This document shows, piece after piece, positions 7,056 to 34,435 of a stretch of 64,000 nucleotides of DNA. The DNA is taken from contig JAJRXD010000018.1 in NCBI GenBank assembly GCA_024276465.1, forward strand, positions 18,997-82,996, in the 5' to 3' direction. How positions within the stretch are numbered: position 1 is the stretch's first letter; each line of letters starts with the position of its first letter. A program made the position numbers and the translations under genes. The notes beneath the pieces are model-generated. The model was not told the origin of the DNA and made no database searches. It saw only the letters and a list, made by a program, of their open reading frames with translations. The stretch is from Deltaproteobacteria bacterium (lineage in GTDB: Bacteria > Desulfobacterota > WTBG01 > CAIYCZ01 > CAIRTM01).

Positions 7056-8501
7056 ATGCCGCAACAACTGGCAAAAAAAGAGACAATTACAAAACTGGAA
7101 GATAGAAGAAACAATGCATTTATCAGAACAAGACAGAGAAGAAATTTTGACAGGAGGGGGTCGTTCAGGGTAGGGGCGAATGCCCTTGCTTTGTTAACTG
7201 AAGGAGATGTAAGAGTATCAGGTATTGTAAAGGACATCAGTGAATCAGGGGCTTGTGTGGAGATTAAAGGCATTGAAAAAAAAGAATGGCAGAGCTTTAA
7301 ACTGGCAGTCCCTATTATGCTTGATAAAAAAATAAATTGTGTAATGAAATGGTCTGAAAACATTAACAGTCACGGGATTTACGGATTAAAATTTTTAGAT
7401 TTAGACAGCGATGAAAAAACCGACTTAAGAAGGAGATTTTTATTAGATGAGACCCTGCTAATGGCACATGCTGCAAGCGTAGTAAAAAAAACAGATGATT
7501 TGCAGATAAAACAGGAGATAAGAGGTTTTTTCCTGATTGATTTAAAGATGGCACTTGAAAGCTTTATTGTAATTGACAAAATGGTTGCAACTAATGAGGA
7601 TGACAGGGAAATTAATGAGAAGTGTAGGGAAACATTAGATAAACTGGCAGCTGCCGGAGACAGGCTGGAGCTGTCTGTAAATGATGCGAGCCTGACCAAG
7701 GCTGTTAAGCAGAGGGTAAGATTTTTAATAGGTCAATTCATTTATCAATCCACAGTTTTCAGGAGGGGATTTGAAAAGCCGCGGGGTTATCCGGGAGATT
7801 ACATGATGCTGGAGATTGTATATAACGATGACGAAGTGTCTGAGGGCATTGGGAAATATATTGACCGGTATGGTCTGGATGTTCCTTACTCAATTGCTAT
7901 TCGTTTGAGAAAGGATAAAATGAAGGAAATTCTATATGATTTTATTAACAACAGCACAGAAGACAAGCTGAATATTTTAAACCTTGCATCAGGGGCCTGC
8001 AGAGACATAAGGGAAATGTTTGACCGCCCTATAAAATATAAAGGTAAAGTAAACCTTATGTGCATTGACCAGGATGAGGTGGCTATAGAATACGCGCATA
8101 AAAAGATATCAGAAATTGATACTGGAAACATAGATATTAATCTGATTCAGGGCAATATTTTAAGGCTGGAATCCCTTGAAATTGGTGCAGACAACAGCCT
8201 TGACATGGTTTACAGTATAGGAATTGCAGATTATCTGCAGGACCGGATGCTGGATAAGATATTTAAGAACTGTTATAAAAAGTTAAAACCAGGTGGCAAG
8301 CTTGTAATAGCATATAAAGACAGGGAAAGACATAAGCCCGTTTCCCTGAACTGGTATGGAGACTGGTGTTTTGTCCCAAGAAACGAGGAAGAATTTACAG
8401 GGCTTATTAATGCTGCTATGGGCAGAGAAAATATTTCTGTTAGCATTGAAAGGGAAAGTTCAGGAGTAATATTTTTTGCTGAGATAACCAAAAACAGATA
8501 G
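7056..8501 (+). CDS. PilZ domain fused to class I SAM-dependent methyltransferase
   Basis: N-terminus carries the PilZ c-di-GMP motifs RxxxR (RTRQRRNFDRR) and DxSxxG (DISESGACV). C-terminus carries methyltransferase motif I (ILNLASGACRD) and a Rossmann fold. Strong RBS GAGGAGG. Confidence 0.7.
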   Translation: MPQQLAKKETITKLEDRRNNAFIRTRQRRNFDRRGSFRVGANALALLTEGDVRVSGIVKDISESGACVEIKGIEKKEWQSFKLAVPIMLDKKINCVMKWSENINSHGIYGLKFLDLDSDEKTDLRRRFLLDETLLMAHAASVVKKTDDLQIKQEIRGFFLIDLKMALESFIVIDKMVATNEDDREINEKCRETLDKLAAAGDRLELSVNDASLTKAVKQRVRFLIGQFIYQSTVFRRGFEKPRGYPGDYMMLEIVYNDDEVSEGIGKYIDRYGLDVPYSIAIRLRKDKMKEILYDFINNSTEDKLNILNLASGACRDIREMFDRPIKYKGKVNLMCIDQDEVAIEYAHKKISEIDTGNIDINLIQGNILRLESLEIGADNSLDMVYSIGIADYLQDRMLDKIFKNCYKKLKPGGKLVIAYKDRERHKPVSLNWYGDWCFVPRNEEEFTGLINAAMGRENISVSIERESSGVIFFAEITKNR

Positions 8502-8507
8502 TTTGCA

Positions 8508-8547
8508 AAGTCCCTCCGGGATAAACTGCCGGAGGGACTTTGTTTTG
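8508..8547 (+). terminator. rho-independent terminator after the PilZ-methyltransferase gene
   Basis: Perfect 13-bp stem AAAGTCCCTCCGG/CCGGAGGGACTTT followed by GTTTTGC. Confidence 0.7.
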
Positions 8548-8775
8548 CATATACAAGTTCTTTATCTTTATAAACAGATCTGCTTCAGGATTGCTTACAG
8601 CCAAACTCAGTCCCACCGTAAAAACAAAATACAATTCAAGTATTAAGCAGCGAATCCGATAATATTACTTTATTTTTTTGGTTTTTAGAGCTTCTGACAA
8701 AGAGTTTTGTACCTCTCTCTACAGAGGTCTGTTTTTTTATGCTGGATGATTTATTGTGATCCGCGAAGGCAGGAA

Positions 8776-10725
8776 ATGAACGCGAAAGATGTGACAAAAA
8801 AGCAAAAGGATTCCGTTAAATTATCTGACTCTCCTGGAATGCGCGAAATGGGGTTAAATGCACTTACGCTGTCATTTCCTGCATATCTTGAAAAAATATT
8901 TATAGAGGACTACTTTGAAAAATCCCTGCAGCAGGTAAAAATCTCTGTTTTTCTCGCGATTGTATTCTTTGCACTGTTCGGAATACTTGATGTGGTATTG
9001 GTTCCGGAAATAAAGAAAGCGCTGTGGGGGATACGCTTCGGCTTTATCTGCCCCGGACTTATTGTAATTCTAATCATCTCATTTTTCCCTGTTTTCAAAA
9101 AACACATGCAGGTTTCTGTTTCCGTGTCAATGATATGGACCGGCTTTGGCATTATCGCGATGGTTGTAATTGCACCACCTCCAGCAAGTTTTTCCTACTA
9201 TGCAGGCTTGATTCTGGTGTTCATGTACGGGTACTGCTTTGTCAGACTGCGGTTTGTATGGGCAGCATTTGCAGGCTGGACAATAGTGGTTTTTTATGAA
9301 ATTGCGGCCATAGGAATAGGGCAGACCCCTGTTCCTGTTTTGGTAAACAATAATTTTTTCTTCATCAGTGCCAATATAATTGGCATGTTTGCCTGCTATT
9401 CAATGGAGTATTATGCAAGGAAAGATTTTTTCATGGCCCACCTTCTTGAAATAGAAAAGGAAAAAGTAAATGCTGTGAACCGTAAGCTGGAACAACGGGT
9501 CGAGAAGCGCACAACCCAGCTGGTTAAAGCCAATGAAGAGTTGAGGCGTGAAATGGAAGAGCGAAAACTGATGCAGCAGGAACTGTTACAGGCCCAGAAA
9601 ATGCAGGCCATAGGCACACTGGCAGGAGGGATTGCACATGACTTTAATAATATTCTTACAGCCATTATCTCCTATTCAGAGATAGGATTATATAAGAAGG
9701 ATATGAATAAAGAAAAAATAAAGTACAGTTTTGAACAGATTCTTAAAGCAGGGGGGAGGGCAAAAGAGGTAATAAAGCAGATTTTAACTTTCAGCAGGCA
9801 GCGTGATGAGCAATTAGGGCCGGTTAAGATAGGCGGGGTTGTGAAAGAAGCTTTAAAACTAATCTCTGCAACTCTTCCAAAAACCATTGATATCCGCGAG
9901 AACATAATGACTGATTCAGACACGGTTCTTGCAGATCCAACACAAATTCATCAGATATTAATGAATCTTTGCACCAATGCAGAACATGCCTTGAGAGAAA
10001 AAGGCGGTGTGATGGAAATAAGCCTTGGAGAAATCTGCATTCATTCTGAATCCCAGCAGCAGAATTTTGATCTGCTTCCGGGAACATACCTTGATCTCAG
10101 TGTAAAGGACACAGGTGCTGGAATGGAAGCTTCTGTAATGGAGAGGATTTTTGATCCTTTCTTTACCACAAAAGGACCGGCTGAGGGAACAGGTATGGGG
10201 CTTTCAGTGGTACATGGAATTGCAAAAAGCCATGGCGGAAAGGTAATAGTTGAAAGCGCTGTTGGAAAAGGCACCACGGTTCATGTGTTTTTTCCCAAGG
10301 CTGACATTAATGAAACATCTGCTGTCGAGAAAGAAGCACAGATGCCATTGGGAAATGAACGGATTCTTTTTGTAGATGATGAGGAAGCATTAATTGAAGT
10401 AGGCCAGGAAATGATTGAGGAATTCGGGTATGAGGTTGTCTGTAAAACTGATCCTGTTGAAGCTTTGGCTGTTTTTCGGGCCGAACCTCAAAAATTTGAT
10501 CTTGTTATCACCGACAAAAGTATGCCCCACATGAATGGTTTTGAGTTTGTTGAAAAATTGCTGGAAATCAGGCCTGATACGCCCGCGATTTTGTGTACTG
10601 GATTCAGCAGCACGGCTGAACTGGAAAAGGCCAGGGCCATAGGTTTCAGGGAGTTGATCATGAAGCCAGTGGTTATGCGTGAGATGGCTGTGACCATCCG
10701 CAGGGTTCTGGATCAGATCAATTAG
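8776..10725 (+). CDS. hybrid sensor histidine kinase / response regulator (membrane)
   Basis: Multi-TM N-terminus and a coiled coil. HisKA H-box (IAHDFNNILTAI). HATPase G-boxes. C-terminal receiver domain (ILFVDDEE...DLVITDKSMP). The ORF opens at 8707, but the ATG at 8776 has an AGGA RBS. Confidence 0.8.
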   Translation: MNAKDVTKKQKDSVKLSDSPGMREMGLNALTLSFPAYLEKIFIEDYFEKSLQQVKISVFLAIVFFALFGILDVVLVPEIKKALWGIRFGFICPGLIVILIISFFPVFKKHMQVSVSVSMIWTGFGIIAMVVIAPPPASFSYYAGLILVFMYGYCFVRLRFVWAAFAGWTIVVFYEIAAIGIGQTPVPVLVNNNFFFISANIIGMFACYSMEYYARKDFFMAHLLEIEKEKVNAVNRKLEQRVEKRTTQLVKANEELRREMEERKLMQQELLQAQKMQAIGTLAGGIAHDFNNILTAIISYSEIGLYKKDMNKEKIKYSFEQILKAGGRAKEVIKQILTFSRQRDEQLGPVKIGGVVKEALKLISATLPKTIDIRENIMTDSDTVLADPTQIHQILMNLCTNAEHALREKGGVMEISLGEICIHSESQQQNFDLLPGTYLDLSVKDTGAGMEASVMERIFDPFFTTKGPAEGTGMGLSVVHGIAKSHGGKVIVESAVGKGTTVHVFFPKADINETSAVEKEAQMPLGNERILFVDDEEALIEVGQEMIEEFGYEVVCKTDPVEALAVFRAEPQKFDLVITDKSMPHMNGFEFVEKLLEIRPDTPAILCTGFSSTAELEKARAIGFRELIMKPVVMREMAVTIRRVLDQIN

Positions 10726-10737
10726 GGAAGATGTCTC

Positions 10738-11583
10738 ATGATAATAAAACATTTTAATACCAGCATAATACGCAGTTTGATCCTGTTTGCAACAGGCATT
10801 ATTGTTTGTTTCAGCACTGAGGCCATTCATGCAGGAGAAAAAAAGATCAACATACCTTTTTTTGATGGAATAAAACTTCAAATCTCAAACGCTTACCCCA
10901 AACTGACTAATGCCAATCACATGATAGAGGATGTAAACAAGACGGCCGGAAGCAGCCTGAGGGACTGGGATACCATAGACATTTTTACTCTGGATGTTGT
11001 GTTATGGAAAGACCTTTCGAAATATTTTAAAACTGATTTTGCAGTGTCAGTATCAACAGGTTCCCTGGTTTCATCAAGCAATGGATTTAACGGTACACCA
11101 CTTGATATGGGCATCAGGATGCGCCAGAGATACAGCACAATTGAGTTTTGGACAAACTTTTATTATTACCCTTTTACTACTGATTACAGGGATGAGTACA
11201 GATCAGGCCACATTATTGAACCTTTTATTGCTGCTGGAATTGGTTATACATTTTTTAGAAGCGAATCTGTTTTCAAAATCAGAAAGGGGAATCTGCTTTA
11301 TAACAGGATAAGAAACAACTGGAATAAAGGCGAATGGGCTTATAAAATGATGACAGGGTTTAATGTTAATCTTGGCAATGTTACTCCTGAGCTTGACAGG
11401 TGGGTTATTACCTGTTCTGCCTTTTATATATGGAACCGTCTGAAAGGGCGTTCCAATCTGCACCTGACAGATGGGATGACTGTGTTTGGGAGACCAGTCA
11501 ATGTCAATATTCAAAAAAGCAACAGAATGGACATTGATCTGACAGGCCCCTGCTTTTCACTGGCTATTGGCAGATACTTTTAA
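10738..11583 (+). CDS. putative outer-membrane beta-barrel protein
   Basis: Signal peptide. Alternating aromatic/hydrophobic pattern. C-terminal ...IGRYF ending in Phe. Lies 13 nt after the kinase stop, so likely co-transcribed. Confidence 0.45.
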   Translation: MIIKHFNTSIIRSLILFATGIIVCFSTEAIHAGEKKINIPFFDGIKLQISNAYPKLTNANHMIEDVNKTAGSSLRDWDTIDIFTLDVVLWKDLSKYFKTDFAVSVSTGSLVSSSNGFNGTPLDMGIRMRQRYSTIEFWTNFYYYPFTTDYRDEYRSGHIIEPFIAAGIGYTFFRSESVFKIRKGNLLYNRIRNNWNKGEWAYKMMTGFNVNLGNVTPELDRWVITCSAFYIWNRLKGRSNLHLTDGMTVFGRPVNVNIQKSNRMDIDLTGPCFSLAIGRYF

Positions 11584-11659
11584 GGCTGCTGTGAACCGTG
11601 TGTTATCACATATGTGGACTTAACAGCCCTGCCTGCTGTGAAAAAACCGGGACATCCCT

Positions 11660-12478
11660 TTAATGAAATTCCAAACTGTTATCAGCAACAACCTGCACGA
11701 CCTCAGGATCAAACTGTGTTCCAGATGACCTCCTTATCTCCTGCAACGCATCTTCGACTGAAAAAGCCTTTCTGAAAGTAAGGTCAGAGCGAAGAAAATC
11801 ATATGCCCCGGCTACAGAAATTATCCGGGAGTTTAATTCGATGTCAGTGCCACCGATTTCATCAGGATAACCCCTGCCGTCGAATCGTTCATGGTGATGC
11901 CTGATAGAAGAGGCATACGGGCTTAAGTGTTCTATTTCCGATACGATTTTTCCTCCAATCTCAGGATGTTTTTTTACCAGAAAAAATTCCTGGTCTGTCA
12001 GCCGTCCCGGCTTTCCAAGAATGACTTCACTTATGCCAACTTTCCCGACATCGTGAAGAAGGGCACTCAGTTTTAAGTCATGAATTTTCTGTTCGGTGAA
12101 TCCCATTTTCTTTCCAATTGAACATGACATGTCAGCAACCCTTGAAGAATGGCCTGAAGAAACTATGTCACGGGTGTCAAGCGCTTTTATGAGAGATTCC
12201 ACAGTACTGACTAATGTGCCTAACAGGCTGTTATAGGCAGTCAGAAGTTCCGGGGTTGAATAATTTTCAAGTGTCTTTTCCTGCTCAACAGCAAATCCCA
12301 GGTCTTTTAAATCGCTCAGCCTGATTCTGTGGTGTCCGCCGGGAGTTTTTATGGCCTTTAATTTTCCGGAGTAGATATAGTTTTTAATTGTCTGAGTGGT
12401 TACATTTAATAACGTGGCAGCTTCGCGGGTGTTGAGGATCTCTTTTGAGGCAAAATCATTTGATCTTTTTAGCATCAT
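11660..12478 (-). CDS. HD-GYP c-di-GMP phosphodiesterase with N-terminal helix-turn-helix
   Basis: HD...HHERFDGRGYP motifs, i.e. the HD-GYP signature. N-terminal excisionase/MerR-like HTH (LLNVTTQTIKNYIYSGKL). Confidence 0.75.
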   Translation of the reverse strand: MMLKRSNDFASKEILNTREAATLLNVTTQTIKNYIYSGKLKAIKTPGGHHRIRLSDLKDLGFAVEQEKTLENYSTPELLTAYNSLLGTLVSTVESLIKALDTRDIVSSGHSSRVADMSCSIGKKMGFTEQKIHDLKLSALLHDVGKVGISEVILGKPGRLTDQEFFLVKKHPEIGGKIVSEIEHLSPYASSIRHHHERFDGRGYPDEIGGTDIELNSRIISVAGAYDFLRSDLTFRKAFSVEDALQEIRRSSGTQFDPEVVQVVADNSLEFH

Positions 12479-19181: not shown

Positions 19182-20987
19182 TTACCAGGGGTTAAAAATT
19201 ATCCCCTTATCCTGCAAAAGGGTTTTCAGCATGTCCACGGACTCTTCCAGGTTATCCGGATCTTGTATCCTTACATCATAAGCAATGTCGGTTGTTACGT
19301 TTTCGCCTACCCAGACAGTTTCGATTTTTTCAGATGTTATGATGGTTCTCATAATCTCCAGATCTTCCTGGGTAAGGTCGATTGCCGTTACAATAAGGAT
19401 GATGCCTGCATCAAGCAGGATATTTACAACTTCTGAAAGCCTTCGGATATGCTCTTTCCTCTGGTGCTCTTTGCCCTTAATATCAGCATCTATCCCATAG
19501 AGGACATTTCCTATGCCTAAAAAGTAAACGACCCTGCCATCTGCAAAAAGGCGGTCCTCCAGGCTTTTTGCCAGGGCTTTTTTGCCGGCATCCTTTCCGC
19601 CTGTTAACAGGATGAGTGTAGATTTCTGGTTGTATTTTTCTGCACGTTTTTCAGACTCTATGATGCTTTTTTCCCATTTGTAATTTCTCAGCATAACCGT
19701 GTCTCTCAGCCATGTCTGCTTGTCCTCGAGAGCCTCTGCAATAATCCCTCCACCGCGTATCTCATAGTTGTCAACAATAACAAACCTGCTTGTTCCTGCT
19801 ATGTCTGTGGCTAAATCAAAAGCTATTGCTTTGTTCAGTTTCAGGGTGCATTCTGCAACATCGTGGCGCTCAATCTGTTTTTTTTTGTTTGTTGTGTTCA
19901 GATCCGATGCATCAATAACCCTTGTTACCTCCTCAACTCTTGCAGGCACGCGGCATGTGCCTAACTTGAAAAGATACTCTTTTTTCATAATCATCGGGTC
20001 CTTACCCAGCCAGAACAGGTTGACTTTAATACGGGAAGTTACACATGGTTTAAGGCCGTTTGATTTTGCAGCAATTTCGCCCCTTGCTATATAAATCTGT
20101 TCCTCAAGCGTAAAACCGGTTGCCAGACCACATTGTGCTTCTTCTTTAGGGGGGGCATTAAAGGTTTCTATGGTCCTGATCCTGCTTTTTTTGCCTGACG
20201 GATAAAACACGATTTCATCGCCGCAGTTGACTGTTCCTGTTTCAATTGTTCCCACCACAATACGCCTGTTGTCTCCAAATTTTGTAAATTTATAGACATC
20301 CTGAACCGGCATCCGGAAGGGCTTGTCTATTTGCCGGGGTTCCTTTTCTAACTTGTCTAAAATTTCAAGAACCGTCTCATTAGTATACCACTGCATTTTG
20401 GTTGAAGGCTGTGCTATGTTATCCCCCTGCATTGCGCTTAAGGGTATAAAGCACACTGGGTTTACATCTATATCCTTTAAAAACGATGTGTATTCAGACA
20501 CAATTGCCTCGAAAACTTCTCTCCTGTAGTCAACAAGGTCCATCTTGTTTACCAGAACCGCAATCTGCTTAATCCCTAACATGGAAATCATATATCCATG
20601 CCGCCGTGAGTTTTCCCGTACCCCTTCTTCTGCATCAATTACCAGAAGTGCAGCCTCACCCCTGGATGCGCCTGTTACCATGTTCTTTAAAAACTCAATA
20701 TGTCCTGGAGCATCAAGTATTATGTAATTGCGCTTGCTGGTTTTAAAAAAAACGCGGGCAGTATCTATGGTAATGCCCTGGGCCTGTTCATCCTTTAATG
20801 CATCAATCAGAAAGGCATACTCAAAGGGTTTTGAATTTTTTTTACAGTTCTCTTTTACCTGTTCAAGCTTTCCGTCAGGAAGAGAGTTGGTGTCGGCCAG
20901 AAGCCTTCCTATAACAGTGCTTTTGCCATGATCAACATGACCGGCAATTACAATGTTCATCTTTTGTTTTTCATTATTTTTTTCCAT
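19182..20987 (-). CDS. cysNC: sulfate adenylyltransferase subunit 1 fused to APS-kinase-like domain (CysN/CysC)
   Basis: GTPase G1 ([10 protein letters not shown]) and an EF-Tu-like body. C-terminal ~170 aa APS-kinase-like domain whose P-loop is degenerate ([10 protein letters not shown]). Confidence 0.7.
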
Positions 20988-21220
20988 AATTTTCCTTTTG
21001 TTTTAATCCTTTGTGCTCTATACCTGTATAATTTTTTCAGCACATAAATGCTGAGATTAGGGTTCCAGTGGTCGAGGATTCAAGGGGCCAAGTGTTTTAA
21101 ACAAATATCGAATATCTGAAAATGTCAAATGATAAAGTTTGTTTTTAAGTATTTCACTTGATACCTCGAACCCTTTATTGCCTTTGTGTATGGTTTGTTT
21201 TAACCCTCAACCCGTATTAC

Positions 21221-22102
21221 CTACATGTACCCGTCTTTTCTGAGTGTTTCAAGACCTCCTCCGTCATCCTTGTCCTGTGCACGGCCTGAACGTTCAGCAA
21301 TATTTTTCAGCTTGCCGCTTTTCAGTTCCTCAATTATTTCTTCAACATTCCTTGCTTCAGAATCGATTGAGGATGTGCACGGGTAGCAGCCAAGGGAGCG
21401 GTATCTTTTACCATCACCCTGGTTGTAGTAAAGAGAAACAGTTGGAATGTTTTCCCTTTGAATGTATTCCCAGATATTAAGCTCTGTCCAGTCAAGCAGG
21501 GGGTGAATCCTGAGGTGTGTGCCTGGAGGAAAATCTGTTTTGTACTGGTTCCAGAACTCAGGTGGCTGGTCACCCAGGTCCCACAGATTTTCCCTGTCGC
21601 GGGGAGAGAAGTACCTCTCTTTTGAACGGGTGCCTTCTTCGTCTGCGCGCACCCCTACTATGACCCCTGTGAAGGGTTCAGTGTTGTTGTAGAGATCATA
21701 TTTTTTTGTTTCGTGATTCAGATAGTACCTTGGCCATTTACCGCTCAGGGTGTTTTTAAGAGCTTTTGTTTTCAGAAGGCTGCAGCATTTAAGACGATCA
21801 ACATTACCATCAGGATAAGTCTGCTTGCTGGCAAGGACATCGTCATTTCTTCCGAAAATCATGTTAAGACCCCATTCAAGAGAAAGCCTGTCACGATATT
21901 GTATCATTTCAGGAATTTTATATCCTGTATCTATGTGGACAAGGGGAAAGGGAACATGCCCGTAAAAAGCCTTACGTGCAAGCCAGAGAAGGACAGTGCT
22001 GTCTTTCCCGATTGACCAGAGCATCCCCATGTTTTTAAAGTTTGCATATGCTTCCCTTAAAATATGTACGCCCAGGCTCTCAAGTTGATCAAGATGATCC
22101 AT
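21221..22102 (-). CDS. cysD: sulfate adenylyltransferase subunit 2
   Basis: PAPS-reductase-like fold with SIGKDS PP-loop. Immediately upstream of cysN on the same strand. Confidence 0.8.
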
Positions 22103-22140: not shown

Positions 22141-23463
22141 TTATTTTAAGATTTTTTTTGCAAAAACAATATCAGTCCGTATCTGTTCGGCCAGAGTTTT
22201 TGCTTCTTTAAATTTTTTCTCACCTCTGATTCGTTTAACAAAAAAGAGAGTAATTTCTTCGCCGTAGATGTTTTTACTGAAGTCAAAAATGTGTACTTCT
22301 ATGGTTGTTTTTTTTTCATCAAATGTGGGGTTCATTCCTATATTGACCACCCCGCTGAACATTCCGTATGATGTTGATATGGATGCAGCATAAACTCCAT
22401 CAGCAGGGATGAGATCCCTGCTGTAAGGTTTCAGGTTGGCAGTAGGAAAACCTATTTTTCTTTTTCTGCCATGTATGACTTTTCCCGTCATGCTGTAATG
22501 CCTGCCCATCAGTTTTTGAGCCAGAGAGACTTTTCCTGAAGAAATAAGGTTCCTGATTGTGGTACTGCGCACAGGGATGTTTTTCATTCTCATGTCACTT
22601 GCAACATGAACCTGAAAATCAAATACCCTGCCCATTTTTTTCAGCAGTTCCACAGCTCCTTTTCTGTTTTTGCCAAAAGCATAGTCATTGCCGATAACAA
22701 TTTCCCTGGGATGGATACGATCGCATATAATTTTTTTTATAAACTCCTCGGGAGATTTTTCTGAAAACTTTTTTGTGAAATTCTCACATATCAGGTAGTT
22801 GATACCAAACTCCTCTAAAATAGATGCCTTTTCTTCAAATGTGGTAAGCTTTAAAGGTTCATGGCCTGGATTAAGGACACTTAAAGGATGAGGATCAAAA
22901 GTATACACAGCTGACACTCCATTAACTGCCCTTGCCCGCTGAATTGTTTTTTTCAATATTTTTTGATGACCAAGATGGACTCCATCAAAGTTCCCAAGGG
23001 TAATAACAGGATTTGTCAGGTCATATTCTTTTATCTTTTTGCTGCCCCTTATGATCTGCATTTCTGAGCCTGATGTTATAAACATTTTTGTTGTAGCGCT
23101 TGCTACAGTAGAACCGTTCTCTTTATACACTGTTGCCCTGACATAAAGAATTTTTTTTTTAACTGCCTCTATTTCAGCTTCGCAGCAAAGCTGTTCATTT
23201 ACTTTTGCAGGGGCTTTAAATTTGGCGCTGATTTCCCCTGTGAGTATCCTGAACCCTTTTTTTACCGCGGCCTTTGCCATTGTCTCATCCAGGAGGGTAA
23301 CAATTATCCCTCCGTGTACAACGTCCTTCCAGCCCTGATATTTAGCGTCCGGCACAAATGTTGTCTTAACTTTTTTTCCGTCCGGCGAGTAGATAAACTT
23401 CAGCTTCAGGCCGTCAGGATTATCATTGCCGCAGGCAAAGCATTTATTATTATCTATAAGCAT
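22141..23463 (-). CDS. ribF: hotdog (PaaI-like) thioesterase domain fused to bifunctional riboflavin kinase/FMN adenylyltransferase
   Basis: N-terminal ~140 aa hotdog fold ([17 protein letters not shown]). Then the RibF nucleotidyltransferase motif ([11 protein letters not shown]) and a C-terminal riboflavin kinase. Confidence 0.7.
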
Positions 23464-23591: not shown

Positions 23592-23678
23592 GCCGAAGTG
23601 GTGGAATTGGTAGACACGCAAGGTTCAGGACCTTGTGGGGGCAACCTCGTAGGAGTTCGAGTCTCCTCTTCGGCACCA
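23592..23678 (+). tRNA. tRNA-Leu (anticodon CAG)
   Basis: GCCGAAGTGGTGGAATTGGTAGACACG...GGTTCGAGTCTCCTCTTCGGCACCA. Long variable arm. Anticodon loop TTCAGGA. Encoded CCA. Confidence 0.9.
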
Positions 23679-23846: not shown

Positions 23847-24116
23847 ATGATAAAGCGAAATTATTTATTGTGTTTTGAATTCAAAGAATGCACCATGACG
23901 GAATGCCCTGCCTATAATAATGTAGAAAAAGACGAGTGCTGGCTTATTCCAAAAACACTGTGTAAAGACCTTTTAACAGATGAAAGACGACCAAAGGAGA
24001 CAATGGATAAATTAGACACTTGTTTTAGTAAATGTGAATATTTCAGGGCAAGAAAGGCGATAGAATTGAATACCGGACAGGACATAGATGCTAAATTCTA
24101 TCAAATTCTAAAATGA
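23847..24116 (+). CDS. hypothetical Cys-rich small protein
   Basis: 89 aa with 7 Cys. No recognised motif. Confidence 0.3.
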   Translation: MIKRNYLLCFEFKECTMTECPAYNNVEKDECWLIPKTLCKDLLTDERRPKETMDKLDTCFSKCEYFRARKAIELNTGQDIDAKFYQILK

Positions 24117-24598: not shown

Positions 24599-25027
24599 AT
24601 GTCCGTAACAAAACAATTACCAATAGTTTTAGTGCTGTTTTTTACATGTCTTTGTTCTGCAGCAGAGGTAAAAGATGATGAGCTAAGTGCTTACAAGGTA
24701 ATCCTTCTCCATTATTCAGGGGCAATTGCACAGCCATGGACAACTGTTAAGCCTGGTACAACAGTAATCTGGGTGAATAATTCAAATGAAACATTACAGA
24801 TTTGCTTTGAAGGCCAGCAGGTTTCATTAGCCTGTAAAAGTCCCGTGCATTTTATCAGGGGTGAAAATGGCTCTTTTACATCAAGGCAGATTCCCCAGGG
24901 AGCAGTAGCAAGTCTATGCTTTGTGGAAAAGGGTGAATATAAGTATGTTGCAAGAAAGATAGCTTCCGGATCAGAAAAATCTTATTTAGGGGTACAGTAT
25001 TTTAAGGGCAAGATTATAGTGAAATAA
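24599..25027 (+). CDS. small secreted protein, paralog A of unrecognised family
   Basis: Signal peptide. RBS GGGAGGAG. Conserved core PGTTVIWVN...ACKSPVHF...GAVASLCF.E.G.Y.Y...F.GKIIVK, shared with the ORFs at 25094 and 30677. Confidence 0.65.
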   Translation: MSVTKQLPIVLVLFFTCLCSAAEVKDDELSAYKVILLHYSGAIAQPWTTVKPGTTVIWVNNSNETLQICFEGQQVSLACKSPVHFIRGENGSFTSRQIPQGAVASLCFVEKGEYKYVARKIASGSEKSYLGVQYFKGKIIVK

Positions 25028-25093
25028 TCAAAGAGAAAAGCCTGTTTTTAATTTTTCCAATTATGAAAAAAAACATTAATAAGGGAGGATGCC

Positions 25094-25549
25094 ATGAAAA
25101 AAACCGTACTGTTTTGTATTGCTGTATTGATGTTCCTTGCCGTAAGCGATGTTGTGTTTTCCGAGCAGGCAGCAGAAAACAAAGATATCCATAAAAAAAC
25201 TGTGGATATTAAGAGCCGCGTGGTTAGAATAGAGGGATTTGAGGGGGTTAACCCCCTTAACCTTTTTATAGAGCCAGGTACGGTTGTCATATGGCTTAAT
25301 CAGTATTACGGGGATGTTGGAGTAAAGTTTCCTGATAAAAAAGTGACAATGGCCTGTAAGAGCCCTGTAAACTTTTCAGTGAATAAAGACGGAGTGTATG
25401 TATCAAACCCTATTGGATATGGAGCTGTGGCAAGTTTGTGCTTTTTAGAGCGCGGCACCTATAAATATTTCATGGAGCGCTCAAATCCGAGCAGAAGACA
25501 GACAACATCGGATCATTTCCGGTTTGAGGGAAAGATTGTTGTAAAATAA
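25094..25549 (+). CDS. small secreted protein, paralog B
   Basis: Signal peptide. RBS AAGGGAGGA. Core is the same as paralog A: PGTVVIWLN...ACKSPVNF...GAVASLCF...GKIVVK. Confidence 0.65.
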   Translation: MKKTVLFCIAVLMFLAVSDVVFSEQAAENKDIHKKTVDIKSRVVRIEGFEGVNPLNLFIEPGTVVIWLNQYYGDVGVKFPDKKVTMACKSPVNFSVNKDGVYVSNPIGYGAVASLCFLERGTYKYFMERSNPSRRQTTSDHFRFEGKIVVK

Positions 25550-25727: not shown

Positions 25728-27482
25728 AGAATGTGCCTCATGGACATGGTTAGAGACATACGCACAAGTAAAAAAAATGTTATTATCCTTTTTATCGTAA
25801 CAATTCAGATACCCCTGCTGCTGCTTATGGCAGCGCAATCATTTTCTGTCAATATCGGTGATCCTTTCCCATCGTTTTCAGAGCCAAACAACCTCAGTTC
25901 TGATGAATGCTTCAGTCTTGGGATAGAATGTGGAGAAGAATTCAGTATTGATGATTTAGTACAGGAATGCATTGTTATGGAGTTTCTGAATGTTTACTGC
26001 CATACATGCAGAATGCAGGTTGAGGTATTTAATGATCTTTTTCATGCAATTGAAAAAGATCCCGTGCTTTTAGAAAAAGCGTGTGTGTTTGGGATTGCGG
26101 TCGGAAACTCTCCTGAAGAGGTTGATGAGTTCAAGAGGGATTTCGGGGCAGTTTATCCTATTGTGGCAGATCCGGAAAAAAAAGTATTCAACCTTACTGG
26201 AAATACAGAGGGAACACCTCATACCTACATTCTCAGAAAAGAGGAAATAAATTTTGTTATTGACTACCATGCCGGAGGGGTTTCTTCCATGGACAGGTAT
26301 CTTTCGAGGATTAAATTATCTGTACGCGGCAGCTTCACAGGGACAGAACCGGGAAACAAAGCACCAGGATATTCTTTCAACTCCGGGGGCATGGTTTTTG
26401 ATGAAAAAAACTTTGCCGGCAACAGGCTAATACTTTATTTTCCTGCTGACAGAAAGTTTTCACTGGAGATAGACACAAGGAATACGGAAAATCAAATTAA
26501 AGTTCTGTATAAGATTTTAAATAAATTTCCAGGGATCACTGTAATATTATTTAAGTCTCCCGGGTTTTCCCCTGATCTGGAGAAAAAATATGAAACCCCC
26601 TCTTTTTATTTTGGAGAACCGGCAGATAAAGAAGTTGCTGAAACCTTTGCATCCCCTGACAAACCTTCAATATACTATATTAACCAGCATGGAAGGATTG
26701 CATTCAAGGGCGATGCAATAACGCTTTATAATGCTCAGAACATCCTGGAAACAGTTGAATATAAGCCGTCTCCACCAATGAATGAACGAGACGTTATAAG
26801 ATTAATAGATGAGCGGATAAAAAAGCTTGGCAGGAAAGTCTTTACAACTGAAAAATTTATAATGGAAAACGGGGAAAAAATCTATGTTACAGCGCTGTCC
26901 CCAGAGCGCAACAGAGCTTTTTTGTTTTCACGATTTGAAAGCAAGCCAAGCCTGTGTGATGTCTGCCACGACAGCCATTTCATATATGTTTTAGACCCGG
27001 AAGGTAAAATAGTGGATTTCATACCGGTTTCCATGACAAAAAAAGATAATATTTTATGGTCAGAAAAAGATGAGCAGAAGATCAAAAGTCTGATTGTTGG
27101 AAAAAGTATTTTTGATAATTTTCCATTTAATCCACGCGTTGATGCAGTATCAACCGCTACAATGACCTCAAGCCTGGTTTTTGAGTCGCTGAACCAGGGG
27201 AAAGAAATTTTTGGGAAGTTCAAGGACTATCAATTTCGAAGTGACCACTGGAAAAAAGAGTGTTTCGGAAATATTTGTAAAATTGAGCAGAAAGCAGAGC
27301 AGATGAAAAAGGTTAATAAAAACTTTGTTTTTGATGATGCTGCATTGAACGCACTGGTTTCAGAAATGAAAATACCGGGATGTCCTCAGGGCGGCTTGCT
27401 GCTGGTTGTGGATGGCAAAGTGCTGTGCAGTTTCCATGGATTTAATACTGCTGGATGCAGGGGAAAAACAGCAGACAAATAA
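25728..27482 (+). CDS. secreted multi-domain redox protein: TlpA-like thioredoxin (CxxC), degenerate thioredoxin fold and C-terminal FMN_bind-like domain
   Basis: Signal anchor VIILFIVTIQIPLLLLMAA. Domain 1 has redoxin blocks IGDPFPSF, YCHTC and FGIAVG...EEVDEFKRDFGAVYPIVADPEKKVF. Domain 2 is thioredoxin-like without Cys. The C-terminus carries VDAVSTATMTSS, which resembles the DxxSGAT flavinylation motif of FMN_bind domains (NqrC/RnfG/NosR). The ORF opens at 25644; the first plausible start is 25728. Confidence 0.55.
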   Translation, partial: RMCLMDMVRDIRTSKKNVIILFIVTIQIPLLLLMAAQSFSVNIGDPFPSFSEPNNLSSDECFSLGIECGEEFSIDDLVQECIVMEFLNVYCHTCRMQVEVFNDLFHAIEKDPVLLEKACVFGIAVGNSPEEVDEFKRDFGAVYPIVADPEKKVFNLTGNTEGTPHTYILRKEEINFVIDYHAGGVSSMDRYLSRIKLSVRGSFTGTEPGNKAPGYSFNSGGMVFDEKNFAGNRLILYFPADRKFSLEIDTRNTENQIKVLYKILNKFPGITVILFKSPGFSPDLEKKYETPSFYFGEPADKEVAETFASPDKPSIYYINQHGRIAFKGDAITLYNAQNILETVEYKPSPPMNERDVIRLIDERIKKLGRKVFTTEKFIMENGEKIYVTALSPERNRAFLFSRFESKPSLCDVCHDSHFIYVLDPEGKIVDFIPVSMTKKDNILWSEKDEQKIKSLIVGKSIFDNFPFNPRVDAVSTATMTSSLVFESLNQGKEIFGKFKDYQFRSDHWKKECFGNICKIEQKAEQMKKVNKNFVFDDAALNALVSEMKIPGCPQGGLLLVVDGKVLCSFHGFNTAGCRGKTADK

Positions 27483-27550
27483 GCAGTTCAGGAACAGTTC
27501 ACAATTAAGAAAAAAAACAGGATTTTTTACATATACATATTACCAATAAT

Positions 27551-28025
27551 ATGCTCATGCTTTTTTTTATGCTTTTTCAAATCAACTGCCTGGAGTGCGA
27601 TTGATTTTTCCCTTAAAAATGTAAAGGATGGGACAACCTTTAAACTTGCTGACTACAGGAATAAAATAATTCTTGTAACTTTTGGTTCCATATATTGCAA
27701 GCCCTGCATAGAACTTCTGCCTGTTCTGAACAGGCTTCATGAAAACTACAAGACTTCTGATGTTCTGATAATCGGGGTAGATATTGACAGAACATCAGCT
27801 GAAAAAGAGATTAGAGAGTTTGCCAGTAAAAAGAAGATACTTTTCCCTTTTTTTATAGATACGGAAAATGCTGCAAGAAAATGCAAGGTTTTTGTGCTTC
27901 CCACAGTTCTTCTTATAGATGGAAGTGGTGTGGAAGTTAAAAGGTTTGTAGGTGGCAAGCCCTACGCAACCCTTGAAAAAGAAATTAATAAGATAGCCGT
28001 GAAGTTACAGGCTGGCAGTAAATGA
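27551..28025 (+). CDS. TlpA/ResA-like thiol:disulfide oxidoreductase, frameshifted
   Basis: The frame 27483-28025 encodes ...LVTFGSIYCKPC...VFVLPTVLLIDGSGVEV, a thioredoxin fold, but contains no ATG. An ATG at 27551 (MLMLFF) is in the +2 frame and meets a stop after 17 codons. Dropping one T from the T8 run at 27561-27568 fuses the two into signal peptide plus thioredoxin. Confidence 0.5.
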
Positions 28026-28127: not shown

Positions 28128-29048
28128 ATGCAGATTGGAATAGTCGGTCTGGGCCGTATGGGTATGAATATGACCAGGCGCCTGATGGGAGGCGGCCACA
28201 ATGTTGTAGTGTTTAACAGAACAGGGGAAAAAGTATTGCTGATGCAGAAGGAGGGTGCAACGGGTGCTGATTCAGCTGAAAAACTTGTGAAAATGCTCAG
28301 GCCACGCCGGATGATATGGCTGATGCTCCCTGCGGGGGATCCGGTTGATGAGTATGTAAAAAAATTTTCAGAGCTTCTGTCTCCTGGTGACATAGTGGTT
28401 GATGGTGGAAACAGTTATTACATGGACGACATCCGCCACAGCAAAAGCCTGAAAGAAAAAGGTATAGATTATATTGACGCAGGTATTTCAGGCGGTATAT
28501 GGGGCCTTGAAAAAGGATACTGTACCATGATCGGAGGAGAGAAAAGGGTGTTCAGACACATGGAGCCGATTTTAGAAACCCTTGCACCAAAAGACGGCTA
28601 CATGTTCTGTGGCCCGACAGGCGCAGGCCATTTTGTCAAAATGGTTCACAATGTAATTGAATATGCAATGATGGAGGCATATGGTGAAGGGTTTGATATT
28701 ATTCAATCATCTCCTTACAGTGAAAATATATCACTTGACAGGTTGTCGCACCTCTGGAACCAGGGCAGTGTTGTAAGGTCGTGGCTTCTTGAGCTTTTGG
28801 AGTCGGCATTTAAAAAAGATTCAAAGCTGGAAAACATTAAGGGCTTTGTTGAAGATTCCGGTGAAGGGAGATGGACAGTGCAGCAGGCAATAGAGACCGG
28901 GACCCCAGCACCCGTTATTGCGCTTTCACTTTTCAGGAGGTTCGAATCACGCATTAAAGATTCTTTTTCCGACCGTGTTCTTGCTGCGCTCAGGAGAGAA
29001 TTTGGCGGCCATGCGGTCGTTGAATCTGAAAAAAACATTAAGAGATGA
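28128..29048 (+). CDS. gnd: 6-phosphogluconate dehydrogenase (decarboxylating), short form
   Basis: [15 protein letters not shown] Rossmann N-terminus and a Gnd-like body. GGAGA RBS lies 7 nt upstream of the ATG at 28128. Confidence 0.75.
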
Positions 29049-30604
29049 CCGGACAGAAAAGAGAAGATCTATCAGTCCTGAAGCCTGAGTTTGGCCGGGA
29101 AACTTCCGGAGAAAGCATGGATGATCAATGCAGGGAGGTCAGGCCGGCGGATCCGTGTGCCATTGTTATTATTGGTGCTTCAGGAGATCTGACTTCAAGA
29201 AAACTTATTCCCGCCCTTTACAGATTGTTTTTGAACGGCTACATGCCTGTTTCATTTGCCATAGTCGGATGTGCCAGGAAAAAGCTCGACAATGAAGCCT
29301 TCAGACAACTTGTAAAAGAATCCCTGGCAAAGGGGGTGGGGGATGATCTTTCAAAACTTGATCATTTTGCCGGCAATCTTTATTACAGGACAGTTGAATA
29401 TGATGATAAGGAAAATTTTAAAGAACTCTCCTGCTTTCTTTCCGATATTGACAAGAAACACGGGACTGCCGGGAACAGACTGTTTTATCTTGCAATTCCT
29501 CCTTTTCTGTATGAAACAGTAGTTCATGTTATGGGAGAGGCCGGTCTTTCTCGTGAAAGCAGGACCAGTGGCAGCTGGTCGCGTCTTGTGGTTGAAAAGC
29601 CCTTTGGGAGTGATCTCAAAACTGCTGTTAAACTGAATGATGTTATAAAGAGATGTTTCAGCGAACAGCAGGTTTACAGGATAGATCACTATCTGGCAAA
29701 GGAAACAGTACAGAATATACTGGTTTTCAGATTTGCCAATTCTATCTTCGAACCACTGTGGAACAGGCAGCATATTGAGCACGTAGAGATATCTGCTGCC
29801 GAAACCCTTGGTGTGGAGCACCGCGCAGGGTATTATGAAAAGTCCGGTATTTTAAGGGATATGTTTCAAAACCACATGATGCAGCTCCTGACTCTTGTTG
29901 CAATGGAGCCCCCTGCGCATTTCCGGCCTGAACCTGTAAGGGATGAAAAGGCAAAGGTTATCCAGTCGATAAGGCCCTTTGATCTGGAACATCTTGAAGA
30001 AAATATTGTGATCGGTCAATATTTATCAGGAAATATTGACGGTAAAAAAGTTCCTGCCTATCGTGATGAGACAGGTGTGGACCCCCTGTCTTTGACCCCT
30101 ACGTTTGCAATGATGAAGGTTTTTATTGACAACTGGCGCTGGCAGGATGTTCCCTTCTACCTGAGTTCGGGCAAGCGCCTGGCTGAAAAAAAGACAAAGA
30201 TTGTAATCCAGTTCAAAGACGTCCCGCACTCTATTTTTCGTGACATTATAGGTGGCAGCATAAGTGCCAACTGTTTGACATTTTTTATTCAGCCAATAGA
30301 AAAAATAGCGCTCACATTTCAGGCCAAAAAACCGGGGTCAACAATTTGTCCCCGTTCCATTAATATGGAATTCAGCTATGACAGTGATTCTGGAGAAACT
30401 CTTGAGGCTTATGAAAAAGTGCTTGTTGACTGCATGAACGGAGACCAGATGCTTTTTTTGCGTCAGGATCTGGAAGAACTGTGCTGGTCGTTTCTTACTC
30501 CATTAATAGAGGACTGTGAAAAGTGTGTTGATAAAAGCAGTTTGCTTCAGTTTTATGGATCAGGCACCCGGGGACCAGAAGGTGTGGAAAAATTAAAAAC
30601 ATAA
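29045..30604 (+). CDS. zwf: glucose-6-phosphate 1-dehydrogenase
   Basis: Motifs [13 protein letters not shown] and RIDHYLAKE. Translationally coupled to gnd (ATGA). Confidence 0.85.
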
Positions 30605-30676: not shown

Positions 30677-31141
30677 ATGAAAGTTAAAAGAATTACATCT
30701 GTCTTATTGACAATAACAGTTTTTTCATTTCTTTTTATCAGTGCAGCAATTAGTGAAGAAGGGAATATACATCCGGAAAAAAAGATTAAAGCCCATAAAA
30801 TCATCCGGCTTGATAAATTAGGTGTTATATTTCCTCCTGTGGCAACTGTTGAGCCAGGCACTACTGTCATCTGGGTAAATGATGCCAGGACAGCAGTAGA
30901 AATAAAGTTTGAGGGCAAACAGGTGACACTGGCATGCAAGAGCCCGGTTCATTTTATTGTTGATTCAGATGGTTCCTTCGTGTCTGACAAAATCCCTCAT
31001 GGAGCTGTTGCAAGCCTTTGCATGGTAGAGAGAGGTGAATTCAACTATGTAGCAAGGAAGGTGATACTCTGGGGAATCGATAACCTGAATTTATATCAGA
31101 GACCTGTCAGGGAATTCCGGGGGAAGATAATTGTAAAATAG
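30677..31141 (+). CDS. small secreted protein, paralog C
   Basis: Signal peptide. RBS AAAGAGGAGA. Core PGTTVIWVN...ACKSPVHF...GAVASLCM...GKIIVK. Confidence 0.65.
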   Translation: MKVKRITSVLLTITVFSFLFISAAISEEGNIHPEKKIKAHKIIRLDKLGVIFPPVATVEPGTTVIWVNDARTAVEIKFEGKQVTLACKSPVHFIVDSDGSFVSDKIPHGAVASLCMVERGEFNYVARKVILWGIDNLNLYQRPVREFRGKIIVK

Positions 31142-32638: not shown

Positions 32639-34132
32639 CTACTCAACAGTAAAAGAAACCCCGCTGCAGTTGTCGACGCTGACATTATAGGTTCCCTTTG
32701 CAGTTCCCCATATCATTACAAGGGCCTGTACTGTCTGGCTGTCTATGGTGTTTGAGTAAAGAACTGTAATGCCGTCTGCTTCAAAATCAATTACACTGTC
32801 AGGGCTGAAGCCTGACGACTCATTTCCCGTGATTGTTACCATAATAAATCTGGGCAGGATGCCAAGGCCGGTTTTGGCACTGGCCGGAGCGATGCTGCTG
32901 AGATTGCACCCCTGTTCTTCCCTGATTTGAAGTTTATTCTCATACCATATCATCTGATCTTCCTGCAGACCGGCAAGTACTACATCCAGGTCCCCGTCTC
33001 CGTCAAGGTCATCCAGTGAAACATCACCGGGATCTCCGTACTGCCCGGTAACATCAGTGTCATTGTCAACAAAATCATCGAGAAGATGCTCTGTCCAGGA
33101 CTGCTGGTCCATGTCATATTCAAACCATGAAATTTTATCAATGAAGGCCCCGGAAATCACAGCATCATCTCTTCCGTCTCCGTTAATGTCCCCGGTGTAT
33201 ATATCCGTGCCATTGTAATCTTCACTTACAAAATTTTTTGTCCAGCTCCCGCCATCCTGCGAAGGGGCTTCATACCAGTAGATACCAGGGGTGTTGAGGG
33301 TTGAAACCAGCACATCTTTCCTGGAGTCCCCGTTTACATCCAGGCAGTTAACATCAAATGCCAAATCCAGATCCCCGTCGATCACAGTCCTGTCGAACAT
33401 AATTTCCTCACCATTGAAATCCACATCAATCCAGGAGACGTTTCCGCGCAGTTTTGAATTGATTATATCTGTTTTACCGTCTCCATTAAGATCGTCCAGG
33501 TAGATAGCGCTTCCTGTTCCCTCAGGCAGAGGCAGCCTTTCCCAGACAGACCCGTCCTGTGCAGGATCTTCAGGGTTGACAAATATAATGCTTCCCTCAC
33601 TTCCTCCTGCTACGATATCTTCCCTTCCGTCCTTGTTTACGTCCAGAGTATACATCTTAAAATAGGCATTATCGTTATCTGAACTTACCAGAAAACGCTG
33701 CCACTCACCTTCAGGTTCTGCAGGTGCCTTAAACCAGTACACCTTTCCTCCTAATGAGCCAACGCTGCCAGTGCCTGCAACCACATCATTGTAGCCGTCA
33801 TTGTCTATGTCTGATACTGCGACACCATTTATATTGGCGATAGGGTCATCTTCAAGAGCACTTGAACTGATAATAAACTGTTCCCATTGAGAACCCTGGT
33901 TGAGGTTGTTTCTAAACCACGCTACTTCAGAATTGAACGGCCCGGGATGTTCGTTAGTTGTTGAGACAACATCAAGATCTCCATCCCCGTCCATGTCTTT
34001 TACATACAGGTAAATCGGACTGGTCTGCTCAGCAATAACATGTTTTTCCCAGCCTTCTGCAACAGAAGCAGAGGCATCATTCGGGACAAAGCAGTAAACA
34101 GCACAAAGCAGTAATAAAAATTTTTTAATCAT
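32639..34132 (-). CDS. FG-GAP repeat (integrin-alpha-like beta-propeller) secreted protein
   Basis: Signal peptide. Repeated D.DGDG.D..V Ca-binding FG-GAP motifs. The ORF extends to 34189; the start at 34132 (MIKKFLLLL) is likelier. Confidence 0.7.
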   Translation of the reverse strand: MIKKFLLLLCAVYCFVPNDASASVAEGWEKHVIAEQTSPIYLYVKDMDGDGDLDVVSTTNEHPGPFNSEVAWFRNNLNQGSQWEQFIISSSALEDDPIANINGVAVSDIDNDGYNDVVAGTGSVGSLGGKVYWFKAPAEPEGEWQRFLVSSDNDNAYFKMYTLDVNKDGREDIVAGGSEGSIIFVNPEDPAQDGSVWERLPLPEGTGSAIYLDDLNGDGKTDIINSKLRGNVSWIDVDFNGEEIMFDRTVIDGDLDLAFDVNCLDVNGDSRKDVLVSTLNTPGIYWYEAPSQDGGSWTKNFVSEDYNGTDIYTGDINGDGRDDAVISGAFIDKISWFEYDMDQQSWTEHLLDDFVDNDTDVTGQYGDPGDVSLDDLDGDGDLDVVLAGLQEDQMIWYENKLQIREEQGCNLSSIAPASAKTGLGILPRFIMVTITGNESSGFSPDSVIDFEADGITVLYSNTIDSQTVQALVMIWGTAKGTYNVSVDNCSGVSFTVE

Positions 34133-34435
34133 TGTTTTCTCCTTTTTGGTTATACAATTCTTCCTTTGTTGGGTTGTGTCTGCACACAATACAAAAAACC
34201 GCTGCTTTTTACAAGATATTTCATCTTCTTTTCAGAAGAGCAGGGCAGGGGCTGTGCCCTGGCTTTTTTTCAGCTGAATATCCCATTGTTTTTTTCTGCA
34301 GCCTCAATTTACTCCATGTTTTCAGCCACATACACTATTTAGTTGATTTTATCCTGATTTGCCTGTATGTATAGTAAAATCTTATCGCTTCCTGTTCAGC
34401 ATTTTTGATACCACACAACACAAGGAGAAAAAAGA

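Follow-up and report, generated by a model that had tools for sequence, protein, structure and literature searches.

Three secreted cupredoxin-fold paralogs without type-1 copper ligands in a thiol-redox and NADPH gene cluster of a deltaproteobacterium

What does a cupredoxin do once the residues that hold its copper are gone? Cupredoxins are textbook copper electron carriers, and the question is raised by a stretch of 64,000 nucleotides from a member of the Deltaproteobacteria (assembly GCA_024276465.1, contig JAJRXD010000018.1, positions 18,997 to 82,996; the whole stretch is referred to here as the window), in which three genes, cupA, cupB and cupC, encode small secreted proteins of what will be termed the CUP family. 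As set out below, these proteins are diverged homologs of plastocyanin and amicyanin that display the cupredoxin fold, lack the type-1 copper ligands, carry a conserved pair of Cys residues, and are encoded within a conserved cluster of thiol-redox and NADPH (reduced nicotinamide adenine dinucleotide phosphate) genes.

Three exported paralogs with a cupredoxin fold

Three-way alignment of the cupA, cupB and cupC products yields 37 invariant columns, reproducing the shared core motif from which a preliminary description of this DNA had proposed a paralogous family. Following removal of the signal peptides, BLASTP comparison of the mature parts returned identities of 41% between cupA and cupB (1e-24), 55% between cupA and cupC (2e-44), and 40% between cupB and cupC (6e-30). 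Because these matches persist once the signal peptides are gone, the similarity lies in the mature domain and in neither the signal peptide nor low-complexity sequence, which disposes of the concern that it might be confined to such regions. The three genes are thus true paralogs, and a tblastn search of the 64-kb window finds exactly these three copies and no fourth.

The gene starts proposed in the preliminary description (24599, 25094 and 30677) stand, while the lengths it gave, 143-154 amino acids, require a small correction as the shortest protein has 142. A longer cupA open reading frame (ORF) is possible from 24566, though without a ribosome-binding site (RBS). Direct reading of the DNA bears out the near-consensus Shine-Dalgarno sequences that had been noted before each gene: GGGAGGAG lies 7 nt 5' of the cupA ATG, AGGGAGGA 4-5 nt 5' of that of cupB, and AGAGGAGA 7 nt 5' of that of cupC. 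A scan for sigma-54 promoters gave 39 matches, where chance alone would give 45, and no match lay 5' of a cup gene; a scan for sigma-70 promoters and terminators revealed no enrichment, and the zwf-cupC interval contains no terminator.

Export signals were judged by a hydropathy and charge scan for a basic n-region, a hydrophobic h-region, and small residues at positions -3 and -1. Each of the three N-termini has an n-region containing K or R, a hydrophobic core that scores 2.6-3.2 on the Kyte-Doolittle scale over 12 residues, and small residues where cleavage is probable, as expected from the signal peptides originally assigned to them, leaving mature proteins of ~120 residues. The same Sec-type features are found in 209 of 219 full-length relatives. 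Export as lipoproteins or via the Tat pathway was considered and rejected because the corresponding motifs are rare among the relatives scanned (17 lipobox-like and 6 RR-like N-termini).

A cupredoxin-like fold, suspected from the outset, is borne out by several independent comparisons. Firstly, the AlphaFold2 model of the cupA product, built from an alignment containing 100 relatives, comprises nine beta strands and has a mean predicted local distance difference test (pLDDT) score of 76.8, rising to ~90 in the core and lower over the signal peptide and at residues 71-80 and 121-130. It displays the Greek-key beta-sandwich of the type-1 blue copper proteins, and its top Foldseek matches in the PDB are amicyanin, plastocyanin, auracyanin and pseudoazurin. 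Secondly, a hidden Markov model (HMM) of the family, searched against PDB sequences, matched Phormidium plastocyanin at E 1e-4, and hhalign aligned the family to amicyanin with a probability of 91.8% and E 7e-7. Additionally, sub-threshold matches to Cupredoxin_1 (PF13473) were obtained for 32 of 100 relatives (best E 6.2e-5), which would indicate relatedness within the same clan as opposed to membership, and weak matches to Copper-bind (PF00127) for only 7 of the 100. Taken together, these data identify the CUP proteins as diverged homologs of plastocyanin and amicyanin.

No established family model covers the window copies at threshold, leaving in place the earlier alternative of an uncharacterised family and removing the prospect that a Pfam family of known function would account for it. 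Specifically, none of the three proteins has a Pfam match at E <= 10, Copper-bind and PF13473 included, nor a usable NCBIfam match at E <= 1; the best NCBIfam match, that of cupA to the TIGR02656 plastocyanin model, reaches E 0.027 and 14.9 bits against a cut-off of 87.85.

The family to which these proteins belong is nonetheless large. A profile search begun from the three window sequences recovered at least 940 proteins of ~150 amino acids, none of them with a Pfam domain and many carrying the product name "plastocyanin" at the Joint Genome Institute (JGI), and when the HMM was run exhaustively, 514 clusters (50% identity) scored E <= 1e-3; among these, 188 scored E <= 1e-10. With one genome scanned per species, every one of the 61 CUP loci came from metagenome-assembled genomes (MAGs) and none from a cultured organism. 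Nearly all of the ~48 strong loci belong to Thermodesulfobacteriota or to entries named "delta proteobacterium"; Nitrospinota and Bdellovibrionales contribute a few. Individual MAGs contain 3-7 copies. Rare architectures include a family-3 solute-binding domain fused to a C-terminal CUP domain (P0177), a protein of two tandem domains in which the insertion loop described below holds both Cys (P0224), and membrane-tethered forms with long acidic linkers; each of these architectures would fit a periplasmic module. Literature searches for a copper-free cupredoxin in Desulfobacterota, or in the context of DUF1302, DUF1329 or MMPL genes, retrieved no description of the family, and the paper on the ORM2a "nanopod" cluster mentions no cupredoxin. 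CUP is, therefore, a large, lineage-restricted, multi-copy family that is undescribed in Pfam and NCBIfam.

The copper site and the cysteine pair

Type-1 copper is held by a His at the start of strand 4 together with a Cys-x(2-4)-His-x(2-5)-Met motif in the loop between strands 7 and 8, and the preliminary description had reported these ligands to be absent. Alignments and family-wide column statistics now establish this. HMMER places the ligand His of plastocyanin (PPHNILF) opposite a Val or Leu of the family, and in the hhalign alignment amicyanin Cys92 falls on Ala118 of cupA, in a column occupied by V, A or L across 269 relatives. The strand 7-8 loop itself varies more than any other part of the protein (entropy above 3.3 bits in the family alignment); that of cupA and cupC contains no C, H or M, and that of cupB no Cys. 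A search of the 269 relatives for the type-1 pattern C-x-H-x-M gave a single match, judged to be spurious. Similarly, the CuA site found in CoxB and in the C-terminal domain of NosZ (H…CxExCxxxHxxM) is absent, and the window copies fall outside the gathering thresholds of PF00127 and the TIGRFAM model as well as the PF13473 family model. On the strength of these alignments the CUP proteins lack all four type-1 copper ligands and therefore cannot be blue-copper electron carriers, and the automated "plastocyanin" labels on their relatives are, in a functional sense, wrong.

In addition to what has been lost, the family has a feature of its own. An insertion of ~15 residues between strands 4 and 5 (ACKSPVHF) carries one invariant Cys and strand 6 (VASLCF) carries a second; both (Cys79 and Cys107 in cupA numbering) are present in 251 of 269 relatives. 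Where the pair departs from this rule, it does so in a coupled manner. Both Cys are replaced together in three full-length members (P0140, P0253 and P0259), while in three others (P0179, P0194 and P0248) the first is displaced by exactly two residues and the second is kept. Co-conservation, coupled loss and a shift of two residues that preserves the register form the pattern expected of a cross-strand disulfide, and a Cys79-Cys107 bond is the most likely interpretation of these sequences. The probable disulfide proposed earlier is thus supported indirectly, by conservation, by coupled loss and by the export of the proteins.

A conserved gene cluster

The preliminary description had placed the third copy within the same cluster as the first two, and comparison with other genomes reveals that this cluster is kept (Table 1). 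Gene neighbourhoods were surveyed by calling ORFs in 50 loci, clustering them, and scanning representatives with Pfam. The arrangement designated Type I consists of genes for a ~560-aa redoxin, a ~170-aa thioredoxin (Trx)-like protein, 6-phosphogluconate dehydrogenase and glucose-6-phosphate dehydrogenase, followed by a CUP gene or sometimes two. It is complete in the window and in L001, L004, L005, L010 and L013 and partial in 8 further loci, with an identity of only 55-65% among the zwf products of Type I loci. The pairing of zwf with a CUP gene 3' of it on the same strand recurs in 13 loci, and in 12 of these the gap measures 49-176 bp. At the other end of the cluster, a CUP gene lies directly 5' of the redoxin gene in the window, in L064, where it is a cupB-type homolog (53% identity), and in L003. 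The last of these loci (5325-12456) is arranged as an nqr-like operon (NqrB/RnfD, an FMN_bind NqrC-like protein, two Rnf-Nqr membrane subunits and an NqrF-like protein), a gene for a 155-aa unknown protein, the CUP gene and a double AhpC/TSA redoxin, a layout suggestive of electrons crossing the membrane to reach thiol proteins of the periplasm.

The genes flanking Type I clusters look like an island of periplasmic thiol-redox functions and defence against oxygen and reactive oxygen species (ROS). Located 3' of the zwf-linked CUP gene (L004 10559-14211; L018, L025 and L031) are genes for a Fur-family regulator, a c554-like multihaem cytochrome, a flavodiiron protein and an NADPH-FMN reductase; a desulfoferrodoxin gene adjoins the CUP-redoxin pair of L064 (6665-7042), and a Trx-NHL protein is also among the flanking products. 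Two further arrangements have a different character: Type II runs DUF1302, MMPL, BNR/YCF48, two bilin-reductase-like genes, FAD_binding_3, CUP, PNPOx-like and MFS, and Type III runs BNR, MMPL, CUP, DUF1302 and DUF1329. In a neighbour-joining tree of the CUP proteins these context types largely follow clades, which makes the paralogs old subtypes, each tied to a partner cluster of its own. Two such subtypes are conserved members of the thiol-redox and NADPH cluster. As a separate observation, a gene for a secreted FG-GAP/VCBS-repeat protein (32639-34189, minus strand) recurs beside CUP genes in three loci (the window, L016 and L028).

Table 1. Coordinates of the CUP genes and neighbouring features within the window.
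Feature	Position	Strand	Description
cupA	24599-25027	+	142-aa secreted copper-free cupredoxin-fold protein; signal peptide ~residues 1-22; Cys79 and Cys107 invariant
cupB	25094-25549	+	151-aa divergent paralog; Asn in place of His84; in the window and L064 its subtype directly precedes the redoxin gene
cupC	30677-31141	+	154-aa paralog; starts 72 bp 3' of zwf, in the zwf-linked position
rdx	25743-27482	+	~579-aa predicted membrane-anchored periplasmic ResA/TlpA-like thiol-disulfide oxidoreductase; ORF open from 25644
trx-like	27504-28025	+	Small secreted Trx-like protein with CKPC motif; between rdx and gnd
gnd	28128-29048	+	Short-type 6-phosphogluconate dehydrogenase; Pfam NAD_binding_2 and 6PGD; conserved cluster position; ORF open from 28047
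zwf	29045-30604	+	Glucose-6-phosphate dehydrogenase; Pfam G6PD_N/G6PD_C; conserved immediate 5' neighbour of a CUP gene
89-aa Cys-rich ORF	23847-24116	+	AAGGAG RBS; sub-threshold NCBIfam "two-CW domain" match (E 0.0045)
tRNA-Leu(CAG)	23592-23678	+	~0.9 kb 5' of cupA

Of the partner genes, rdx is the most distinctive. Its start was picked according to the lengths of its homologs, and besides a transmembrane anchor and a ResA/TlpA-like domain in which CHTC is invariant, its product has another domain of Trx-like type, the conserved motif CD.CHD.H, an FMN_bind-like segment, DAVSTATMTS (Pfam E 0.01, below threshold), and a C-terminal tail rich in Cys (AlphaFold2 pLDDT 91). This architecture is lineage-restricted and undescribed, and the protein may be a flavinylated periplasmic thiol reductase. 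The intact trx-like gene that follows is missing from the ORF list because, as the DNA reads, ATT stands at the position of its homologs' ATG; tblastn comparison with the ~170-aa Trx-like proteins of other loci nevertheless gives 35-51% identity, with E down to 4e-46. The ATT could be a start codon of non-canonical type, or it could have arisen by point mutation or through an error in sequencing.

The Cys-rich 89-aa ORF that lies 5' of cupA was considered as a part of the system and rejected, having no homolog in any related locus. An Rfam search of the whole window returned tRNA only. Farther upstream, a gene on the minus strand (22141-23463) encodes a bifunctional riboflavin kinase/FAD synthetase with an N-terminal 4HBT thioesterase domain, an unusual fusion, and is adjoined by CysD-like and CysN/APS-kinase genes (19182-22102).

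Possible roles and known systems

How, then, might the CUP proteins act? They are proposed to be copper-free, disulfide-braced modules of the periplasm that serve in non-metal binding or as adaptors by way of the conserved face formed by strands 4, 5 and 6, a proposal to which we would give roughly an even chance. The proteins keep the eight-stranded cupredoxin sandwich; according to this scheme the insertion Cys would be bonded to the strand-6 Cys where the family has replaced the copper site, such that the surface around ACKSPVHF and VASLCF, and not a metal, would be the working surface. Each subtype is associated with an envelope or redox gene cluster of its own. In the window, two subtypes bracket the CUP-redoxin-Trx-like-gnd-zwf-CUP cluster, which in related genomes lies beside oxygen- and ROS-defence genes, and the window copies may serve the periplasmic arm of a system for oxidative stress and thiol redox.

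Several points weigh against this proposal. The term "binding module" is a weak, default type of assignment. The AlphaFold2 segment containing Cys79 is modelled at a pLDDT of only 66-77. The synteny is drawn from a limited set of related MAGs, such that part of it may reflect inherited gene order as opposed to functional coupling. Lastly, the CUP genes have two dedicated thiol reductase genes as direct neighbours, and no residues of the family other than the two Cys are both invariant and reactive; a redox-active pair would fit these two facts equally well.

That alternative, which we regard as a tentative and rather unlikely one, holds that a dithiol/disulfide couple has replaced copper and that CupB and CupC are dedicated clients or thiol relays of the adjoining ResA/TlpA-like reductases. 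Electrons would be drawn from the NADPH generated by zwf and gnd, by way of cytoplasmic thioredoxin and a CcdA/DsbD-type conduit encoded elsewhere, for defence of the periplasm against oxidative stress. Support for such a role can be found in the recurrence of CUP genes on both sides of the rdx-trx-gnd-zwf block in diverged genomes, in the ResA/TlpA-type character of rdx and its invariant CHTC, in the position of the L003 CUP gene between the nqr-like operon and the double redoxin, and in the nearby flavodiiron protein, desulfoferrodoxin and Fur-family regulator. These observations must be set against others. In small secreted beta-sandwich proteins an invariant Cys pair generally has a structural role, and the two Cys of the CUP family lie 28 residues apart, one of them in mid-strand, and form no CxxC-type motif. 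Most paralogs, namely those in the MMPL/DUF1302 and FAD_binding_3 contexts, are without a redoxin gene beside them, and the three members in which both Cys are missing otherwise conform to the family signature. Cytochrome c maturation could just as well be the task of the reductases, as a multihaem cytochrome gene is present in the same island, and no CcdA/DsbD gene was seen in the cluster. A precedent for redox control of such a pair does exist: the Cys pair in the cupredoxin domain of CoxB is kept reduced by TlpA (PMC6669012).

A broader and more speculative version of this idea, which seems to us improbable, would describe the family as a "thiol cupredoxin": a plastocyanin scaffold repurposed in sulfidic, copper-poor anaerobes, in which a pair of redox-active Cys has taken over from the copper centre. 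The proteins would then be soluble periplasmic dithiol/disulfide carriers or sensors, charged by ResA/TlpA-like and possibly flavinylated reductases with NADPH-derived electrons and feeding oxygen- and ROS-defence or envelope systems, with the paralogs devoted to different partner clusters.

Still harder to sustain is a cryptic metal site, in which the Cys pair, with or without His84 in the main subfamily, would bind Cu(I) or another thiophilic metal and the proteins would function as periplasmic metallochaperones or buffers, after the manner of CupA or of Sco-type Cys2His sites. His84 is present in ~90% of close relatives, four Cys gather within this region in a small subgroup formed by P0179, P0194 and P0248 (AADCP…C.GC…SLCF), and in other systems TlpA-type reductases ready Cys ligands for metallation. 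Across the 269 relatives, however, the His84 column contains H in only 132, with N in 67, G in 33 and R in 19, and cupB itself has Asn; a Cys2His site is unlikely, and was rejected as the principal interpretation, because this column is not conserved. In addition, Met-rich and CxMxM motifs are lacking, the CUP genes have no metal transporter or regulator as a consistent neighbour, and it is typical of disulfides that both Cys disappear jointly while the fold is kept, leaving metal binding by the pair very doubtful. As for the reading that these are ordinary type-1 blue-copper electron carriers and that the JGI name is correct, the cupredoxin fold, the product names and the weak TIGR02656 match of cupA speak for it, and it is effectively refuted by non-liganding residues at all four positions in the three window proteins and across the family, none of the window copies matching Copper-bind even at the most permissive threshold applied.

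Whether they act as binding modules, as proposed above, or in some other capacity, the CUP proteins merit attention. The fold assignment is in itself unsurprising; what is new, and open to testing, is that the family is so large and restricted to uncultured anaerobes, that its paralogs have expanded, and that it has a conserved link to zwf, gnd, ResA-like and oxygen-defence genes. A family of at least 500 clusters that has kept the fold and its homology to plastocyanin, and has discarded copper for a conserved Cys pair, has gone undescribed and mislabelled as "plastocyanin", and in uncultured anaerobic Desulfobacterota it has grown to several copies per genome. The conserved position of CUP genes next to those for dedicated periplasmic thiol reductases, NADPH supply and oxygen defence provides a testable entry to the manner in which strict anaerobes protect or rewire the periplasm under oxidative stress. 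At minimum, an annotation error is corrected and a new domain family defined; at most, if the thiol-based interpretation were true, a new class of periplasmic redox carrier would be at hand.

Comparison with known systems helps to define the position of the family. Relative to amicyanin and plastocyanin (PF00127), the CUP proteins have all of the His/Cys/His/Met ligands replaced and a ligand loop variable in both length and sequence, and they add the Cys-bearing insertion of ~15 residues and the strand-6 Cys, with no Pfam match at threshold. From the EfeO-N/FtrB/Cupredoxin_1 group (PF13473) they differ in that the window copies score nothing against its model, the iron-uptake partners FTR1, P19 and EfeB are absent, and that group is not marked by the conserved Cys pair. 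The CupA-type Cu(I) chaperone (PDB 4f2e), a cupredoxin fold whose ligand loop bears a Cys…Cys-x-Met-x-Met cluster for Cu(I), is distinct in turn, as no window copy contains CxMxM and the second CUP Cys is located in strand 6 and not in the strand 7-8 loop. In the case of CoxB and TlpA, the latter a membrane-anchored TlpA/ResA-type thioredoxin (PMC6669012), the likeness resides in the reductase genes of this type that adjoin CUP genes, any client relationship being hypothetical; the CoxB Cys belong to the CuA loop, which CUP proteins do not have, and neither an oxidase nor Sco/PcuC chaperones are encoded in the CUP cluster. A conceptual precedent for a copper-free binding module is offered by E. 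coli SufI/FtsP, the cupredoxin-type domains of which are reported to have lost copper-binding residues and to serve a periplasmic protein-binding or scaffold role (PMC2661564). SufI is a three-domain, Tat-exported homolog of multicopper oxidases acting at the divisome, whereas the CUP proteins are single-domain, Sec-exported, plastocyanin-like and multi-copy, and carry the Cys pair. Set beside these systems, the CUP family is best classed as a copper-free branch of the cupredoxin superfamily.
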